Virus record (IMG/VR): IMGVR_UViG_2740892230_000020
Reading direction: 5' to 3' (one strand)
DNA from: a virus
Taxonomy: Duplodnaviria > Heunggongvirae > Uroviricota > Caudoviricetes
Length of the DNA stretch: 6,863 nt
Each line of letters opens with the position of its first letter. Positions within the stretch are counted from its first letter, which is position 1. The position numbers and the translations under genes are program-made. Below the pieces are notes generated by a model that saw only the letters and a program-made list of their open reading frames with translations, did no database searches and was not told the DNA's origin. Below are positions 169-6,863 of this stretch, piece after piece.

Positions 169-248
169 CCCGACCCGGGGGGGGGTATCATCCGGCGTAA
201 AAAAAGATCGCTTTGGACACCGCCCCCCCTCTCACGCAGAGAAAAAAT
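1..248. repeat. Left arm of an inverted repeat (HNH 3' end plus 80-bp flank); partner at 6527..6771
   Basis: By manual alignment, 1..248 is the reverse complement of 6527..6771 at roughly 94% identity. Differences: 8 clustered substitutions at 69..94, about 4 substitutions in the flank, and a 2-nt homopolymer length difference. Confidence 0.8.
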
Positions 249-258
249 NNNNNNNNNN
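249..258. other. Assembly/scaffold gap (10 N)
   Basis: Run of ten n characters. Sequence on either side is unrelated in content: inverted HNH flank to the left, 3' end of a minus-strand ORF to the right. Confidence 0.98.
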
Positions 259-520
259 GCAGTACATCCGGATCATAATCACGACCATCACGCGGTACCG
301 GAATGGTCCCCACAGCGTCATCCACCATCGCCTGCAGAACCGGATGTACCTCATCCACCGTCACATGCTTCTGTAATACCGCCGACAGGGAAGCCAGTTT
401 CTCTTCAAACGCTTGTGCCTGCGCGGCCATCTTCCCCTCAAATGTGCGCTGTAAATCCGCCAGCACCGTGGAGAATTCTTCGCCCAGTGCACGAATAATG
501 GACAGTTCCCGTTCCGTCAT
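259..520 (-). CDS. Hypothetical phage head-module protein, translationally coupled to the portal gene; 3' end lost in the N gap
   Basis: ATG at 520..518 overlaps the portal stop (517..519) in an ATGA arrangement. The open frame runs to the gap and encodes MTERELSIIRALGEEFSTVLADLQRTFEGKMAAQAQAFEEKLASLSAVLQKHVTVDEVHPVLQAMVDDAVGTIPVPRDGRDYDPDVL, which looks helical and acidic. The ORF-track extension to 188 crosses the N run and reads through the inverted HNH flank, so it is not trustworthy. I recognise no family. Confidence 0.45.
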
Positions 521-1881
521 TTTCTCAGTATCCCCCTGAACATCGCTTTCACTGCATCATGCTCTGTTTCACTGATTGCCTTATTACCGTCAGATGCGCC
601 GTCAGGCAGTTGTGCTGAAACTGTTTTCCCGGCCGACGCGAACGGGTCCTCACGGGCATCACGACGGGACAGCGCCTCCAGACTGTAGTTCTGCTGCTGA
701 AGATACAGTGCATCACCGCCGGCAAGGGGCGGCAGGTTCTCACGTTTACGGGCCTCATTGGGCGTGAGAAGCGTATTTTTCACCGATTCACCCAGTGTTT
801 TCATGCGCCGTTCGCTGTCCATTCTCAGCAGCGTGGTGACGTCAAACTCCGTGCTCTCGTTTTCCCCCGTTTCCAGCGCCTCATCCAGTAACAGCTCAAT
901 GGACTCAATCAGCGTCTGCAGACACTGGGAATAATACTGCTGCTCCAGCGCCTCCACGTTGTCACTGGAAGGCGGGTGGCCAACGCCAATCTTGTAGGCC
1001 GGGACACGGAACACCGAACAGACAATTTCAGCCGTCATTTTCAGTTGTTCCACCGTCTGCGCATCCACCGGTGAAAACGTCGTGGGGCTGTATTTTGCCC
1101 CGTTGCTCAGTATGGCCGTCTTCCCGGCATTTTCGCCCGTATATCCGCTGTCCCAGTTCCCCTTCAGTTTTTTCGCGTTTTCTTCCGTAATACTGCCGGG
1201 GACCTCAATCACGCCTGATGGTCGCCCGCCATTTCTGAAAAAATACGTCGAATTTGCCTGAATATGATGCCCCTGCATGGCCGCCAGCCCGGCGGCATAC
1301 ACCGGCGGCAGCCCCACAAGCGGATGAAAAAAACAGTTAAACCGGTCGTGGATCACTTCCCGGGCAGGCACCGTCACCGCCTCCGTGATCCCGCAGTTCC
1401 GGTCCGGCGTGATGCGATAGAACACCTCGCCGTCATCCGCCACCAGAGGTTCAACCCGGTTCCAGTCCAGAATACGCAGTTCTTTGATCTGCCCCCGGGA
1501 GTTACGGATTTTCAGCACCACCGTATTGCCGTGACGCAGTTTGGCGTTCAGCCACAGTTCAAAAAACTGGATACGATTCTGCTGTGCATTGGGACGACGA
1601 CAGAGACGGGCAATATCCCCCTGCCGTTTTTCACGGCGGATCCCCTGTGTATCGGTCTGCATCAGGCGCAGTCGCATTTTGGCGATATCCTGGGATATCA
1701 GCGAAATGCAAGAAAACACCGCGTGAAAGGACAAAACGGTTTCCGGATCGGCTTTCACACCCTGCTGCCAGGCACCGGCAAAAGGCTCAGCCACCGCCTG
1801 AAACAGGGACCGCCAGCCCACTTCTCTTACGTCACGTCCTGATTTCTGGTTTTTTCGGGTTCGCCGCAAAAGGTTCCACAT
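517..1881 (-). CDS. Phage portal protein (HK97-type portal family)
   Basis: 454-aa ORF. The region YFFRNGGRPSGVIEVPGSITEENAKKLKGNWDSGYTGENAGKTAILSNGAKYSPTTFSPVDAQTVEQLKMTAEIVCSVFRVPAYKIG matches the conserved core I recall for HK97-type portals (FF-NG-PSGVL, W...Y.G..NAGK, EI...F.VP). GGAG lies 8 nt upstream of the ATG at 1881. The start is uncertain: an in-frame GTG at codon 21 is possible if the 1827..2048 ORF is real. Confidence 0.85.
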   Translation of the reverse strand: MWNLLRRTRKNQKSGRDVREVGWRSLFQAVAEPFAGAWQQGVKADPETVLSFHAVFSCISLISQDIAKMRLRLMQTDTQGIRREKRQGDIARLCRRPNAQQNRIQFFELWLNAKLRHGNTVVLKIRNSRGQIKELRILDWNRVEPLVADDGEVFYRITPDRNCGITEAVTVPAREVIHDRFNCFFHPLVGLPPVYAAGLAAMQGHHIQANSTYFFRNGGRPSGVIEVPGSITEENAKKLKGNWDSGYTGENAGKTAILSNGAKYSPTTFSPVDAQTVEQLKMTAEIVCSVFRVPAYKIGVGHPPSSDNVEALEQQYYSQCLQTLIESIELLLDEALETGENESTEFDVTTLLRMDSERRMKTLGESVKNTLLTPNEARKRENLPPLAGGDALYLQQQNYSLEALSRRDAREDPFASAGKTVSAQLPDGASDGNKAISETEHDAVKAMFRGILRK

Positions 1882-2048
1882 TCGCCATGCTCCGCATCAC
1901 GTTTCTTTTTCTGACCTGCCGGACGTCGCGCTGTGATGTACTCCGCCTTCCCCAGGCGAACCAGCACCTCCGCACACGGCTGTGCCACATCACGGATATC
2001 CCCGGCCCGGGCATCATGCGTGCCCTGCAGATACTGGATTTTTGCCAT
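1827..2048 (-). CDS. Possible small ORF (73 aa) between capsid and portal genes; doubtful
   Basis: ATG-initiated ORF lying mostly in the 211-bp gap between the capsid stop (2093) and portal start (1881), with protein-like composition (MAKIQYLQGTHDARAGDIRDVAQPCAEVLVRLGKAEYITARRPAGQKKKRDAEHGE...). It has no Shine-Dalgarno within 5-10 nt of the ATG and overlaps the annotated portal start by 55 nt in another frame. Confidence 0.2.
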   Translation of the reverse strand: MAKIQYLQGTHDARAGDIRDVAQPCAEVLVRLGKAEYITARRPAGQKKKRDAEHGECGTFCGEPEKTRNQDVT

Positions 2049-2092
2049 CTGTTACTGCGGGAAGCTCGCGCCTCCCGCCCTCCTCATCAGAC

Positions 2093-4030
2093 TCAGCCAC
2101 CGGACGCAGTTCCGTAGTTCACACCGGTGATCACCGCCACTGCCGCGGTACGGCGACGACGCCAGTTGATCCAGCGCTCCGCACGGATGGCCACGCTGCC
2201 GGTCTGAAACATGGAGACCAGTTCCACCGGTGACGGTGTGCTGCTGTCGCTGGTCGGTTCAGACTGCATCTCCAGTGACGCTTCACGGGACATATCCACC
2301 GCCACACCGCCGTCATCAGCCAGATAAATATCCGGTGCATTCACCAGTACCAGCTGGTCACCCACATACTGGGAGACAATCACCGGAAGCCCCTGGAAGG
2401 TCCCGCCCAGCAAGGTCATGTCCGGATATTCCTTCTGCCCCAGCGCATTTTTACGCATGGACAGCGCCAGGGCATTCGTGCTGGACATCAGCCAGACCGC
2501 ACCGGTGGGCTGCAGATTTGCCGTCACAAACTGGCCAAACGCGGCCTCGGCATCCGCATCCGGGTTACCGGTTGATGCCGTGCCCTTCACATCATGGGTG
2601 ATGGACGCCGGGGAGACATCCGCCACCGCCGCTTTTTTCGGGTCCACAAAGTCTGTGTCCAGACGCGCCACCACCGCTTCTGCCAGCGCATTACGGACCA
2701 GCGCATCAGCTGCCGGACTGGAAAAACGGATCAGCTCTTCCGTCAGTACCGCAATGGCCGACACCTTCGCATGACTGAAGGTGATGGATTCAAAATCAAA
2801 CTTCGTCAGGGGTCTGGCCTTACCCTCCCCCACCCAGCCGGCAGCACCACCGGACACCTGGGCATGCACGCGGATATTGAACGGCACCTGACGAAGTGCA
2901 GGGATCCCGCCCTGACCAAATCGCCCGATAATGGTCTGCGGACGCAGGTAATCAATAAAGTCCTGCGCATATTCCTGGTATTCAGACAGGCTGCCTGCCC
3001 ACTGCGGGTCCGTGGTGGTCCCTGCCCCCACCGCCGATTTCAGGACATGATGCAGACGGCTGTCATCCGGATACTGACGACGGGCCACTTCCAGGGCTTC
3101 AGAGCGGACACCTTTAGCCGCGGCCAGTGATTTGGCAAAGCGGGCGAAACCAATCCCCTTCTCCAGTTTCTGCTCAACACGGATCACCGGCGCTGAAGCC
3201 ACCGTGGCCACATTCCCGTTACCGGCCTGTTTCACCGGCTGTGCCGTGGCGGCCTTACTGGTTTCCAGTTCACGCAGACGCTTCAGGTGCGCATCCACCT
3301 GACGGATTTCCGCTGCGGTGTTGTCGTAGTGCTCTTCCTCTTCCACATCCAGTGTGCGGCCTTCCTCTGCGGCTTTGTTCATGATCTCCTCAAGGGAGGC
3401 TGCCAGCGCCGCACGCTTGTTTTCAAAACTTTTAATCTGTTCACCAGTATTCATTGCTGACTTTTCCTTATGAAAAGAGGTTATTGACTGTGCCGAAGCG
3501 CCGGCAGAAGATGCGATTTTCACCACCGGTTTCCGGTTGCCGGACGCGGCAGAAAACGGGCGGTCGAAATATTTAATGGTCCGGATGGTGCATTCCGCAT
3601 TCGCGGGCACGGTGACGGCAGACACCTCCATCAGCTCCCAGCGCAGAAAATGCAGTCCGCCTCCGTCCAGATAAGTGTATTCATGGGGCCGGAAGCCCAC
3701 AGAAAGCCCCCTGACCAGCCCGGTCTTAATGGCAGCCCAGGCCTCATCCAGCCGGGCTGCCATCTGGGAGGGCATCCCCGGCTCCGGCTTCACCAGCATT
3801 GCCGTGATTTCCAGCCCTTCCCTGACCCGACGCACCGTACACTGGCCTACAGGGCGGGAATGGTCATGCTGCCAGAGAAACGGGATCGTACTGCCAAACT
3901 CCGCCCCCTCCGGCTCCAGGATGTCACCATCCCGATCCGGAGAAGGCGTTGACGCAATCCCGGTGATCACCCGTTCATCCTCGCTGAAGGATTTCACCGT
4001 CAGCAGGGAACAGGCCCGTTTAAGAGTCAC
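2093..4030 (-). CDS. Prohead protease / scaffold-like coiled coil / major capsid protein fusion (HK97 family)
   Basis: 645-aa ORF. The N-terminal ~165 aa carry HK97-type prohead protease motifs (ITGIASTPSPDRDGDILEPEGAEF; His in WQHDHS; Ser in VRGLSVGFRP, about 50 residues after the His). Residues ~190-280 are a charged helical segment (EQIKSFENKRAALAASLEEIMNKAAEEGRTLDVEEEE...LKRLRELE). The C-terminal ~350 aa resemble the HK97-fold capsid body. The GTG start at 4030 is preceded by a perfect AGGAGG (4036..4041 on +) with a 5-nt spacer. Confidence 0.85.
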   Translation of the reverse strand: MTLKRACSLLTVKSFSEDERVITGIASTPSPDRDGDILEPEGAEFGSTIPFLWQHDHSRPVGQCTVRRVREGLEITAMLVKPEPGMPSQMAARLDEAWAAIKTGLVRGLSVGFRPHEYTYLDGGGLHFLRWELMEVSAVTVPANAECTIRTIKYFDRPFSAASGNRKPVVKIASSAGASAQSITSFHKEKSAMNTGEQIKSFENKRAALAASLEEIMNKAAEEGRTLDVEEEEHYDNTAAEIRQVDAHLKRLRELETSKAATAQPVKQAGNGNVATVASAPVIRVEQKLEKGIGFARFAKSLAAAKGVRSEALEVARRQYPDDSRLHHVLKSAVGAGTTTDPQWAGSLSEYQEYAQDFIDYLRPQTIIGRFGQGGIPALRQVPFNIRVHAQVSGGAAGWVGEGKARPLTKFDFESITFSHAKVSAIAVLTEELIRFSSPAADALVRNALAEAVVARLDTDFVDPKKAAVADVSPASITHDVKGTASTGNPDADAEAAFGQFVTANLQPTGAVWLMSSTNALALSMRKNALGQKEYPDMTLLGGTFQGLPVIVSQYVGDQLVLVNAPDIYLADDGGVAVDMSREASLEMQSEPTSDSSTPSPVELVSMFQTGSVAIRAERWINWRRRRTAAVAVITGVNYGTASGG

Positions 4031-4042
4031 ATCAGCCTCCTG

Positions 4043-4068
4043 AAAATAAAAAAACCGCCGCAGCGGTT
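4043..4068 (-). terminator. Intrinsic-terminator-like hairpin plus U-tract between terL and the capsid gene
   Basis: Minus-strand RNA reads GAACCGCUGCGGCGGUUUUUUUAUUUUC. The stem AACCGC/GCGGUU closes a 4-nt loop and is followed by U7-A-U4, which runs directly into the AGGAGG ribosome-binding site of the capsid gene. The plus strand has no equivalent T-tract, so the element is orientation-specific. Confidence 0.45.
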
Positions 4069-4093
4069 CATGATGGTTACAGGGTGAGCAGGG

Positions 4094-5755
4094 TTATATG
4101 AAAAAAACCTCATACGCTTTCTTTTTCGGTTCCGGATTCAGGGACATCAGGGACACCGCATTGAAGAGCGCCATCAGCGGGTCAATTTTTCCCCGTCCGC
4201 TGGCCTGTTTGGTGATAAGAATGGCGTTACCTTTAGGCTCCACCCGGGCATTGCCAACGCACCAGGCCATCAGTGGCTGACCACCATGCACCAGTACTCC
4301 CTCAGCCAGTTTGCGCTCGGTGGTTTTTATGGCCCCGCCCAGCTTCCAGCCCTGGCTTATCCCCACAACAATTCCGTCGGGGATCCCGGCTTCCGCCAGT
4401 GAATCCAGAATCTGCCCCACACCTGACGGGTCAATACCGATATGCTCCAGTAACTCAGCCTCATGAATACGACGCACATACTCCGCCACTTCCGCCGTGT
4501 CATCCCCGACCCGACGGACAATCGTCATGTCTCCACAGGCCACAAAATCCTGAAAACGGGATGCCTCACTCTTCCGTCTGACCACCGCGGTTTCATGCGC
4601 CCAGGCATGGCCCCAGCCCAGCCATTCGCGGGTTTCCCTGTCACGGCCAATCACGTACATTCCCAGCAGATCATCCAGGCCCCCGCCGTCAATCCCCACC
4701 GTCACCACATCAGCGCGCTGCAGGATATCGTCCAGGCTGACGCGCCTGCCCTGCTGCTCCCAGAAATCCGCACCCGCCCAGCGGTCAGAACGCAGGGCAA
4801 GACCAATTTCCACATTGGCATGTTTTGACATGAAGCCACGAAATGCTTCCTCACCAGCCTCCCGGGCTTTACGGTACTCCCGGTACAGAAAAGCCTCATC
4901 CACCGAATAACCGAGATTCGGGTTAACCATGGCGAGGTTTTCCATCAGCAGGTGAGCCCCGCTTTCCACCATTTCAGGAGGATGCTCAAAAATCACCGGC
5001 AGAAAGTGCGGATCATGAATTTTGCCGTCACGGACATCCCGGGCATACTGCAGTTTCTGTCTGAACACCCCGGCGGGCGGTTCATTCGACTGGGTGGTCG
5101 TATACACCACAAACCCTTCCGGACGGGAGGCAAGCCCGCCGATGGCTTCACGTAGCATGTCTTCCGCCTTGTACTGCTTGCCAAACAGCCACAGTTCATC
5201 AATCAGTGTCCCCACGGACTTGATACCGGACACCGTATTCGGATCGGCTGCCACCACCTTCAGGGTGGTGTCCGTCACCCGATGGGTGATGGTCCGGATA
5301 TGTGTCTGCACCTGACAGAGGTCATCCAGATCATCGTCCCGTCGTACCATATCCCTGGCAGGGTTGAAGGCGTTAGCCGCCACCTCCACGGTCGGGGCCA
5401 GAATGGTGTAGCCCGCCGCCTGCCGCCAGTTCAGTAACAGCGCCGTCATCATGATCCCCGCAGCCAGCGTGGACTTACTGTTTTTCTTGGGGATAAGGAT
5501 AAACACTTCCTTGATATGGCGAACACCGGTCTGCGCATCGTAGGAGCCAAACAGGGCCGCCACCAGGTCAAACACCCACGGTGCACAGGACTCCCCGAAT
5601 GTCGGGCTACCCGGTGCATCCACAATTCGCAGTTGTTTAAAAATCGCCAGTGCATGTGCAGCCTGGTCCGGATAAATCGGAGCCGGAATAATCGACAGCC
5701 CCTTTTTCAGGCGCTCTGCCCAGTCCGGGCAGGCCGTGCTCCACACAGGTATCAT
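4094..5755 (-). CDS. terL: Terminase large subunit (ATPase/nuclease)
   Basis: 553-aa ORF. Walker-A-like motif in FILIPKKNSKSTLAAGIMMTALL, C-terminal nuclease-domain-like VTVGIDGGGLDDLLGMYVIGRD, and length and position typical of HK97-type large terminases. The ATG at 5755 overlaps the terS stop (ATGA) and is preceded by GAGGG with a 6-nt spacer. Confidence 0.9.
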   Translation of the reverse strand: MIPVWSTACPDWAERLKKGLSIIPAPIYPDQAAHALAIFKQLRIVDAPGSPTFGESCAPWVFDLVAALFGSYDAQTGVRHIKEVFILIPKKNSKSTLAAGIMMTALLLNWRQAAGYTILAPTVEVAANAFNPARDMVRRDDDLDDLCQVQTHIRTITHRVTDTTLKVVAADPNTVSGIKSVGTLIDELWLFGKQYKAEDMLREAIGGLASRPEGFVVYTTTQSNEPPAGVFRQKLQYARDVRDGKIHDPHFLPVIFEHPPEMVESGAHLLMENLAMVNPNLGYSVDEAFLYREYRKAREAGEEAFRGFMSKHANVEIGLALRSDRWAGADFWEQQGRRVSLDDILQRADVVTVGIDGGGLDDLLGMYVIGRDRETREWLGWGHAWAHETAVVRRKSEASRFQDFVACGDMTIVRRVGDDTAEVAEYVRRIHEAELLEHIGIDPSGVGQILDSLAEAGIPDGIVVGISQGWKLGGAIKTTERKLAEGVLVHGGQPLMAWCVGNARVEPKGNAILITKQASGRGKIDPLMALFNAVSLMSLNPEPKKKAYEVFFI

Positions 5756-6315
5756 CCGTTGCCCTCATTATCATTATTCACCACCAGGCGGGGTGGTGGT
5801 GGCACCGCAAAACGGTTAGCCGCTTTTTTCGCCGCGTCACCTTTTGCCGATTTTTTACCGGCATCCCCTTTTTTATGGTGCGTGAACTGCGCCAGCTTAT
5901 AAGCCGCATCCAGCGCCAGCCTGGGGTCGGTATTAATGTTCTCCACCAGAAGACGCCCCATCGCTTTCACCGGATCGGGAAGACCATCCTCCATATATTC
6001 AATACCAGGAGACATCACCGCGGACGGTGGCATCTCCGGATTGTTTTCGTCCGGCTGTGGTATTGCAGCCGCCTCACGGCGACGGGGTTTATCCTCCTGC
6101 TCTGATTTTTTCTGCCGGTAAACAGGAACCTCATCCACCTCCACCGTCTCGCATTGTTTACGGGCTATAAACGCAAGCACCTCCGGATCTTTTGCCAGCT
6201 GCGAGCCTTTAACCCTGGCGGTCTTCGCCGAATAACCAGCGGCAATGGCTGACGCTGTTTTGTTTTTCCCGGACATGAGCGCCAGCGCAAATTTTCGTTT
6301 TTGCGTTGTCAGCAC
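5752..6315 (-). CDS. terS: Terminase small subunit
   Basis: 187-aa ORF. The N-terminus LTTQKRKFALALMSGKNKTASAIAAGYSAKTARVKGSQLAKDPEVLAFI fits the helix-turn-helix signature of small terminases (LT-KQ..F...Y...N.T.AA..AGYS.KTA...G..LL..P.V), followed by a Lys-rich C-terminus. GTG start at 6315 is preceded by GGGAGGAGG. It sits immediately upstream of, and is translationally coupled to, terL. Confidence 0.75.
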   Translation of the reverse strand: MLTTQKRKFALALMSGKNKTASAIAAGYSAKTARVKGSQLAKDPEVLAFIARKQCETVEVDEVPVYRQKKSEQEDKPRRREAAAIPQPDENNPEMPPSAVMSPGIEYMEDGLPDPVKAMGRLLVENINTDPRLALDAAYKLAQFTHHKKGDAGKKSAKGDAAKKAANRFAVPPPPRLVVNNDNEGNG

Positions 6316-6385
6316 AGCCTCCTCCCGGGTCCAGAACGCACTCAGCCGGGTATGGTTCAGCCCATTTTTCCCGGCGTCTCATGCC

Positions 6386-6513
6386 GCAAATGTTAACTGC
6401 TGCCTGGTTAACATTTGCTGAAAAAGCCAGTTAACATTTTTTCCGCACAACAAACTGAATAATAAAGATAAAAACCGCAAAAATGCCCGGACAGCCAGTT
6501 AACATGTTAACTG
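6386..6513. promoter_or_regulatory. Array of GTTAAC-core palindromic sites (candidate terS-binding cosB-like sites or operator array)
   Basis: Five GTTAAC hexamers at 6392, 6407, 6430, 6498 and 6506, all within extended half-sites C(A/T)GTTAACAT. 6386..6418 is a 12-bp inverted repeat (gcaaatgttaac / gttaacatttgc) around a 9-bp spacer. 6496..6513 is a perfect 18-bp palindrome (cagttaacatgttaactg). An A/T-rich tract (6448..6485) lies between the sites. Confidence 0.5.
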
Positions 6514-6526
6514 CCCTGAAACGGGA

Positions 6527-6771
6527 ATTTTTTCTCTGCGTGAGAGGGGGGGCGGTGTCCGGAGCGATCGTTTTTTACGCCGAATGATACCCCCCCGGTC
6601 GGGTTACAGTCCGATGATGTCGTCCGCTCTGCCACTACCTCCGGACACCTCCGGCAGCGTCGGGTCCGGCATACCACTCGCCGTTTCACTGACTGACTTC
6701 TGGCGATGGCATTCGGTACAGAGCGTCCAGAGATTCGTCTCCTCATTACCACCACCGAACTGAAGTGCAAT
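6527..6771. repeat. Right arm of the inverted repeat (partner of 1..248)
   Basis: See left arm. Homology presumably continues beyond 6771 into the rest of HNH, but the left copy is cut by the window start. Confidence 0.8.
6546..6596. other. G7...C7 homopolymer dyad immediately 3' of HNH (candidate cos nicking region)
   Basis: A G7 run (6546..6552) and a C7 run (6590..6596) flank a ~37-bp spacer, directly downstream of the HNH stop at 6604. The same arrangement recurs in the inverted copy at 177..229 with a 9-nt run. Its position between HNH and terS is where cos lies in HK97-like phages. Confidence 0.3.
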
Positions 6772-6863
6772 GCGGTGATCGAGTTCACTGTCACAAAGGT
6801 CAACCACACGCCCACAGAGACAGCACTGTCCGGCATCCCTCAGCCAGATACGACGCTTGAGGG
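6604..6863 (-). CDS. HNH endonuclease (5' partial; start beyond window end)
   Basis: The minus-strand frame is open from the window edge: LKRRIWLRDAGQCCLCGRVVDLCDSELDHRIALQFGGGNEETNLWTLCTECHRQKSVSETASGMPDPTLPEVSGGSGRADDIIGL, with stop at 6604. It shows the full HNH zinc-finger signature (C-x2-C...DH...N...C-x2-C-H). The ORF-track entry 6604..6807 is the same frame started at an internal GTG. Confidence 0.85.
   Translation of the reverse strand, partial: LKRRIWLRDAGQCCLCGRVVDLCDSELDHRIALQFGGGNEETNLWTLCTECHRQKSVSETASGMPDPTLPEVSGGSGRADDIIGL

Follow-up and report, generated by a model that had tools for sequence, protein, structure and literature searches.

How does a tailed phage that encodes its prohead protease and its major capsid protein (MCP) in a single open reading frame (ORF) avoid placing a protease on every subunit of the shell? 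This question is raised by a viral DNA stretch of 6,863 nucleotides (nt), IMG/VR record IMGVR_UViG_2740892230_000020, which is referred to below, over its whole length, as the window. Its minus strand carries an ORF of 645 amino acids (aa) (69.4 kDa; positions 2093..4030, with a GTG start and a TGA stop at 2093..2095), composed of a protease, a linker, scaffold-like helices and an HK97-fold capsid protein. An earlier reading of the window (the original prediction) had proposed that translation also begins at an in-frame ATG inside this ORF, which would yield a protease-free scaffold-capsid product. Comparison with relatives supports this proposal, and we consider it highly likely that the one reading frame gives rise to two proteins: the long form and a protease-free capsid protein started at Met193.

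The three-domain composition of the ORF, which formed part of the same prediction, was borne out by Pfam, by profile alignment to HK97 gp4, by a structure model and by a fold search. The N-terminal domain (aa 1-146; 3593..4030, on the minus strand, as are all features of this gene) is assigned to the S78 (HK97 gp4-type) prohead serine proteases. It matches Peptidase_S78 of Pfam (PF04586) at aa 48-151 (32.7 bits; cutoff 21), and hhalign aligned HK97 gp4 with a profile of 59 diverse relatives with a probability of 97% (E=9e-11). In this alignment, His65 and Ser114 of gp4, its catalytic residues, fall opposite His55 (codon 3868..3866) and Ser110 (codon 3703..3701), and the latter two residues are invariant across the 59 sequences (36-53% identity). 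Both the catalytic His and the catalytic Ser of this protease type are present. In the AlphaFold2 model of the 645-aa protein (mean predicted local distance difference test score (pLDDT) of 83.9), aa 1-146 form a folded domain (pLDDT ~90). This is followed by a variable, basic linker (aa 147-192; 3455..3592; isoelectric point (pI) of 10.3), which is modeled as disordered (pLDDT <50 at aa 147-189) and whose 3′ end carries a putative internal ribosome-binding site.

Behind the linker lies a segment (aa 193-262; 3245..3454) that the original prediction had described as an acidic coiled coil resembling the scaffolding delta domain. The description holds in that the segment is acidic (pI 4.85; 16 D+E vs 10 K+R), predicted to be helical and located at the position of the HK97 delta (scaffolding) domain; as for the coiled coil, the model contains only a predicted helical hairpin, made up of two long helices (aa 195-223 and 229-262; pLDDT of at least 95). 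According to AlphaFold2, the hairpin is followed by residues modeled as disordered (aa 263-292) and by three short helices (aa 293-331; both elements together at 3011..3244), which extend to about aa 340. The remainder of the protein is the HK97-fold capsid body (aa 341-645; 2096..3010). It matches Phage_capsid of Pfam (PF05065) at aa 386-635 (55.5 bits; cutoff 24.2), and a Foldseek search of the PDB with the modeled body retrieved the HK97-fold proteins of Bxb1 (E=6.5e-15), HK97, D3 and T5, among others (probability of 1.00 for these four). Profile alignment of the capsid part to HK97 gp5, delta domain included, gave no significant match (hhalign E=0.43). A search of the PDB by sequence yielded only a marginal match to Bxb1 (E=0.003), which indicates that there is no solved structure for this family of protease-capsid fusions. 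The fusion is not an assembly or sequencing error; this possibility was ruled out because many complete E. coli genomes carry the ORF at 100% identity and because conservation of the fusion extends across the family.

The in-frame ATG in question (Met193, MNTGEQIKSF; 3454..3452) is located two residues ahead of the first long helix, and thus at the linker/helix border, in agreement with its predicted place at the boundary between the protease and the coiled coil. The AAGGA core that had been noted upstream of it was also confirmed: it spans 3469..3465 (codons Lys188-Glu189) and is separated from the ATG by exactly 10 nt. Comparison with relatives suggests that the nested product would be a protein of 453 aa (48.4 kDa; 2093..3454), consisting of the scaffold-like helices and the capsid protein.

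The most direct view of this codon is provided by relatives in which the protease and the capsid protein are encoded by separate genes. These include (i) two Snodgrassella loci (L025 and L028), with a 234-aa protease gene followed by a capsid gene starting MTIEEQINAV, (ii) an Acidovorax locus (L024), whose separate capsid gene has a GTG start (VNLQEQIKRL), (iii) Burkholderia phage vB_FUBS1, in which the two genes are annotated as separate and the capsid protein starts MTIAEKIKQL, and (iv) two metagenomic loci (L113 and L116) encoding free-standing capsid proteins (P0258 and P0193), which are 52% identical to the C-terminal part of the window's protein and whose genes each come after a separate S78 protease gene, with the gene order terL, protease, MCP, small ORF, portal. 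The capsid starts of all of these align with Met193. By homology, then, Met193 appears to be the capsid gene's own initiator. A further IMG/VR locus (L100) is an intermediate between the fused and split forms: its two ORFs, for protease and capsid, share a frame and are parted, at 2050-2100, only by a TAA adjoining the ATG (…CACAAG TAA ATG ACC…). With this stop codon immediately ahead of the capsid ATG, the difference between fused and split states is as little as a single stop codon; readthrough of the codon is conceivable at this locus.

If Met193 serves as a start in the fused genes as well, the codon should be retained in them, and this is what was observed. A library clustered at 50% identity was searched, and of its 150 best representatives 142 are fused. 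The column of Met193 is occupied by Met in 111 of the fused proteins and by Val or Leu in 11, while 11 others have a Met within two residues, which makes 133 altogether; most of the other 9 have a Met or Val a few residues off. Among 93 fused genes for which DNA was available, the codon is ATG in 88 and encodes Val in 3, and wherever the DNA was read this Val is encoded by GTG. At closer range, Met193-Asn194 is invariant in 22 enterobacterial proteins (73-97% identity), where it comes right after the least conserved stretch of the protein, the linker being highly variable in this alignment.

The start codon is accompanied by a Shine-Dalgarno (SD) sequence, which is retained at the nucleotide level. 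Dereplication at 90% identity resulted in 50 fused genes with DNA, and all 50 contain an ATG or GTG with an SD core located 5-11 nt upstream. The peptide encoded over this core varies (KE, KG, QG, TG, PEEG, PKEG, PQEG, TRS, NRR, KV, KD and TEA), as does the codon register in which it is read. Within a clade of relatives at 44-50% identity, the internal SD is GAGGAGGG, AAGGAGGG or CAGGAGGG. In this clade it constitutes the gene's best match to the anti-SD sequence (top 0.5% of positions), with a pairing energy of -11 to -12 kcal/mol, vs -4 to -6 kcal/mol for the SD of the long form. The cultured Pseudomonas phage PAJU2 belongs to the same clade, and its internal ATG (Met197) is located behind CAGGAGGG. 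The mean anti-SD energy at Met193 is -7.8 kcal/mol, vs -2 to -3 kcal/mol at the other conserved Met codons, with the exception of Met580. Gly codons lying within the SD are GGA in 17 of 37 cases, vs 9% gene-wide.

In the Enterobacter- and Salmonella-type linkers (L004, L005, L048-L060 and others) we also observed the sequence CAAAAAAGGAAA, with a run of six A residues just before or within the internal SD, ~10-20 nt ahead of the internal ATG. Runs of this type can promote slippage; the window lacks this one.

The mRNA around the internal start is predicted to be open. The segment from -30 to +30 around Met193 has a folding energy of -6.9 kcal/mol vs a mean of -17.9 +/- 5.1 kcal/mol for the gene, which places it among the least structured 2.3% of positions, and the 30 nt upstream of Met193 are 67% A+T in a gene that is 60% G+C. 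Across the 50 relatives, the local fold averages -7.7 vs -16.0 kcal/mol (z=+2.0); it is weaker than the mean of the respective gene in 50 of 50, and it ranks in the top 10% in 76% of them. A short transcript produced from an internal promoter was considered as another source of the short product and was rejected, since no sigma-70-like promoter was found within the gene; this leaves internal initiation of translation as the route by which the short product would arise.

Several observations weigh against use of the internal start, beginning with the SD of the window itself. Taken alone, the anti-SD duplex at Met193 (-6.2 kcal/mol) is matched or bettered at 16% of the gene's codon positions, and since the gene contains 11 internal Met codons, one such SD-like case is expected by chance. 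The window by itself is therefore no better than chance, and the significance of the motif comes solely from the comparison with relatives. Moreover, a control codon, Met580, is also preceded by an SD-like sequence (-6.1 kcal/mol), which can be attributed to an invariant DDGG peptide that forces G-rich codons. A synonymous-recoding test was added in order to part such peptide-driven sequences from a selected SD. At Met193 the observed pairing is stronger than that of the recoded sequences (-7.86 vs -6.00 kcal/mol; Wilcoxon p=3.6e-15, n=48), a p-value that overstates independence because the sequences are related, while the direction and specificity of the effect are clear. At the five control Met codons, including Met580, the observed codons pair with the anti-SD as strongly as the recoded ones or less so, and an effect of codon choice is seen at Met193 only.

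These data bear on the alternative that only the full-length polyprotein is made, with each subunit carrying a protease that is later self-removed, and that the Met and the purine stretch serve the protein, for instance as a cleavage site or helix cap. In its favor, the long form has a strong SD in the window's clade (AGGAGG at 4036..4041, with a 5-nt spacer to the GTG at 4030..4028 and an anti-SD duplex of -10.3 kcal/mol), the internal SD of the window does no better than 16% of gene positions, and single-ORF protease-scaffold-capsid fusions have been published with no mention of a second product (PMC7302621, PMC5513430). Also weighing against two products, the literature that was searched yielded no ribosome profiling, N-terminal sequencing or gel data for a short product, and a shell built solely of long forms is physically conceivable: by a rough estimate, its internal cargo would amount to ~15 MDa in a T=7 prohead, a crowded yet possible state. 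A role in the protein nevertheless fails to explain why a start codon, an SD that shifts its register and open mRNA are retained jointly in a linker that is otherwise free to change. Over the SD the encoded amino acids vary widely, whereas the nucleotide motif stays, as does its spacing from the ATG; codon choice favors anti-SD pairing at this Met alone; Val in the column is GTG wherever it was read; many relatives have the strongest SD of the gene at the internal site, exceeding that of the long form; and in the free-standing homologs translation starts with this Met, which plays no structural role there. We regard exclusive production of the polyprotein as very improbable.

A second alternative is harder to exclude. 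It grants that the internal start is functional in distant relatives, but sees in it a relic, weak or decaying, in the lineage of E. coli and the Shiga toxin (Stx) phages, where almost everything made would be the long form and the short form would be negligible. The original prediction had cautioned that a 10-nt spacing is sub-optimal, and this caution was fair, since the E. coli lineage indeed possesses a weak version of the internal SD. In the window and the enterobacterial clade the site is AAGGA or AAAGGA, with a long spacer (10 nt in E. coli) and a pairing energy of only -5.6 to -6.2 kcal/mol; it ranks only among the top 5-16% of gene positions, and the N-terminal SD, with its -10.3 kcal/mol, is stronger than the internal one. 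It is this combination of a weak SD and a 10-nt spacer in E. coli that makes the relic difficult to dismiss. Decay would, however, be expected to show in a linker that otherwise changes freely, and the site has been kept. In 20 of 20 E. coli variants checked, the AAGGA motif and the ATG are invariant, even though the codons of the spacer between them vary (TCAGCA or ACCATA) next to a fixed AAGGAAAAG and ATG. Both elements are also retained across enterobacterial genera at 57-77% identity, with use of the rare Gly codon GGA, and the site lies, as described above, within the least structured 2.3% of the gene. The start of the long form, which was not mentioned in the original prediction, points in the same direction. 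It is GTG in 20 of 20 E. coli variants, and ATG in 48 other dereplicated relatives with an assignable N-terminal start. A GTG start gives weaker initiation than ATG, and a change from ATG to GTG confined to E. coli would lower, not raise, initiation of the long form. Decay of the internal start in this lineage is, in our view, unlikely, though less so than exclusive production of the polyprotein.

Four lines of evidence (homology to real start codons, retention of the codon, retention of the SD at the nucleotide level and open mRNA) agree; each comparison that was capable of refuting the internal start favored it, and the case that these lines make from sequence for two products is strong. We infer that the internal site is used in vivo, and the following scheme would then apply. 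Ribosomes initiating at the GTG at 4030 would produce the 69-kDa long form, with protease, linker, scaffold helices and capsid protein, while those initiating at the ATG at 3454, 10 nt behind AAGGA, would produce a 48-kDa short form equivalent to an HK97-style capsid protein with its N-terminal scaffolding domain. Since the scaffold helices and the capsid body are common to both forms, they are proposed to co-assemble into one procapsid. The protease would be carried inside as a covalent passenger of the long form, an arrangement that would replace the C-terminal targeting tail of the free HK97 protease. The number of proteases per shell would be set by the relative strength of the two start sites. 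The much stronger internal site of the distant clade (44-50% identity) is as expected if most subunits are made without a protease, and the replacement of ATG by GTG in the E. coli lineage may reduce the output of the long form.

In the assembled particle, the protease would then cut away its own domain as well as the linker and scaffold helices, and the mature capsid protein would remain. Judging from the structure model, the maturation cleavage site or sites are probably located within the region of aa 263-340, in which the disordered aa 263-292 and aa 335-338 are candidates. A 602-aa variant encoded by E. coli O157:H- (P0005) lacks 44 residues corresponding to aa 292-335 of the window's protein, including the three short helices; it may represent a defective prophage copy or a sign that this segment is dispensable.

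Extended to the whole family, this scheme leads to a broader proposal, which we hold to be probable: that a very large family of phages and prophages resembling HK97 encodes its protease solely as an extension at the N-terminus of capsid subunits that form a minority, that the MCP proper is an unannotated nested product, that the ratio of the start sites sets the protease dose, and that fused and split forms are interconverted by gain or loss of a single stop codon before an intact MCP start. Among the best 150 matches, the fusion family accounts for more than 140 clusters (clustered at 50% identity); its members include Stx-converting phages of pathogenic E. coli and PAJU2.

The gene is common in its host. 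It was found in 1,252 of 5,426 complete E. coli genomes, with up to 7 copies per genome, in many genera besides, and in 93 phage records, nearly all of which are Stx1a-, Stx2a- and Stx2c-converting phages, BP-4795, YYZ-2008 and 1717. These records name the product "phage major capsid protein", "phage prohead protease" or "major head protein/prohead protease", and always describe a single product. The window (259-6863) is colinear, at 99.6%, with E. coli O157:H7 Z1836, in which the gene is located downstream of stx2a and the lysis genes, in the order HNH, terS, terL, fusion gene, 73-aa ORF, portal, connector genes and lambda-like tail genes. The window is the head module of long-tailed Stx-converting lambdoid prophages. 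The order terL, protease-MCP (fused or as two genes), small ORF, portal is common to fused and split relatives (window 517-5755, minus strand; L110, L111, L113 and L116).

Some further features of the region were noted. A terminator-like hairpin (GAACCGCtgcgGCGGTTT) followed by a T-run is located at 4043-4069 (minus strand), between the terL stop codon and the AGGAGG of the fusion gene, and T-runs occur at the same position in many relatives. It could be a late-operon terminator that is read through under Q antitermination, or an element of mRNA processing or stability. At the other end of the window, positions 1-248 repeat 6527-6771, where the HNH gene has its 3′ end, in inverted orientation (94-95% match), and are followed by 10 N at 249-258; this arrangement looks like a scaffolding artefact of draft assembly and not like biology. 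The ORF at 188-520 (minus strand), located 3′ of the portal gene, is interrupted by the N gap. Its assignment as a head-tail connector was rejected, since only the start of a 407-aa repeat protein is left in this truncated ORF. The complete counterpart (L001, 18511-19734) contains ~3.5 tandem repeats of ~45 aa (…IPVPADGKSITPDDVRPMLEQMVKEAVSHIPAPRDGRDYDPEVLKQAVNDAVAN…), which probably caused the assembly break. NCBI annotation joins this repeat protein and the portal gene as a "frameshifted" pseudogene, while the portal ORF is intact (454 aa, full Pfam match).

Should the nested start be used, the precursor of the most abundant virion protein of these phages is unannotated, and proteomic or structural work on Stx-phage heads would begin from the wrong precursor. 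It would also explain how the fusion avoids the presence of ~415 proteases in one shell. The feature is widespread, unannotated and, given the Stx phages, medically adjacent. The closely related fused, split and single-stop-codon forms of the family are suitable material for comparing the targeting of a protease by covalent linkage with targeting by a binding tail, and the internal site would be relevant to the expression of these genes for the production of capsid-like particles.

Among known systems, single genes joining an S78 or other protease to a capsid protein have been described several times as unusual features of a genome: the tripartite capsid gene of Gifsy-2, with a protease, a scaffold-like middle part and a capsid protein (PMC12315714), the protease-scaffold-capsid fusions of actinobacteriophage clusters EE, AN, AM, AU and EL (PMC7302621, PMC5513430), and the protease-capsid fusions of thaumarchaeal proviruses (PMC6563490). 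The Gifsy-2 and actinophage fusions resemble the gene of the window in that one ORF comprises a protease, a scaffold-like part and a capsid protein; an internal start goes unmentioned in those parts of the texts on them that were available. Both Gifsy-2 and the actinophages were absent from the phage matches at E<=1e-20, and no direct comparison was made. Gifsy-2 was reportedly described by Effantin et al. in 2010 as having a protease of the ClpP-like type, along with a capsid and decoration system resembling that of lambda. Much closer is gp03 of PAJU2, a "prohead protease fused capsid protein" that belongs to the same family (48% identity over the full length) and whose GenBank record notes the fusion. 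Like the "major head protein/prohead protease" records of the Stx phages, it is entered as a single product, with no nested gene annotated. Literature searches on virion proteomics of long-tailed Stx phages and on the PAJU2 capsid retrieved nothing relevant.

HK97 shares with the window's gene an S78 protease and a capsid protein in which an N-terminal segment, in the window's gene a predicted helical and putative scaffolding one, precedes the HK97 fold. In HK97, however, the protease (gp4) and the capsid protein (gp5) are encoded by two genes in different frames (3348-4025 and 4028-5185), and the gene order is terL, portal, protease, MCP, in contrast to the single ORF and the order terL, protease-MCP, small ORF, portal found here. 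The HK97 protease binds to the interior of the shell via its C-terminal region; the protease fold of the present protein is followed instead by the disordered linker.

Nested genes form the other line of comparison. In phage Mu, I and Z are nested protease/scaffold genes. [quoted passage not shown] Lambda C/Nu3, the HFTV1 pair and HSV-1 UL26/UL26.5 have in common with the window's gene an N-terminal protease, an in-frame internal start and a shared part that enters the procapsid, which in our case is a prediction from sequence. The likeness to lambda C/Nu3 drawn in the original prediction is apt, but it covers only part of the arrangement: in genes of that type the nested product is a separate scaffold and the capsid protein is encoded by another gene, whereas here the nested ORF continues through the capsid body to the stop codon at 2093, so that scaffold and capsid protein would form one product. 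Lambda gpC, furthermore, is a member of a different protease family. The short form of HSV-1 arises from a separate transcript, in contrast to the present gene, in which no internal promoter was found. A nested capsid start within a protease-capsid fusion gene was not stated in the literature found, whose coverage is incomplete (key HK97 and Gifsy-2 papers lie outside it). Protease-capsid fusions and nested protease/scaffold genes are each known; no description was found of the two combined so that the capsid protein is the nested product. If this combination is real, the dosage logic of lambda C/Nu3 and herpesvirus UL26/UL26.5 would be extended to the capsid protein itself.

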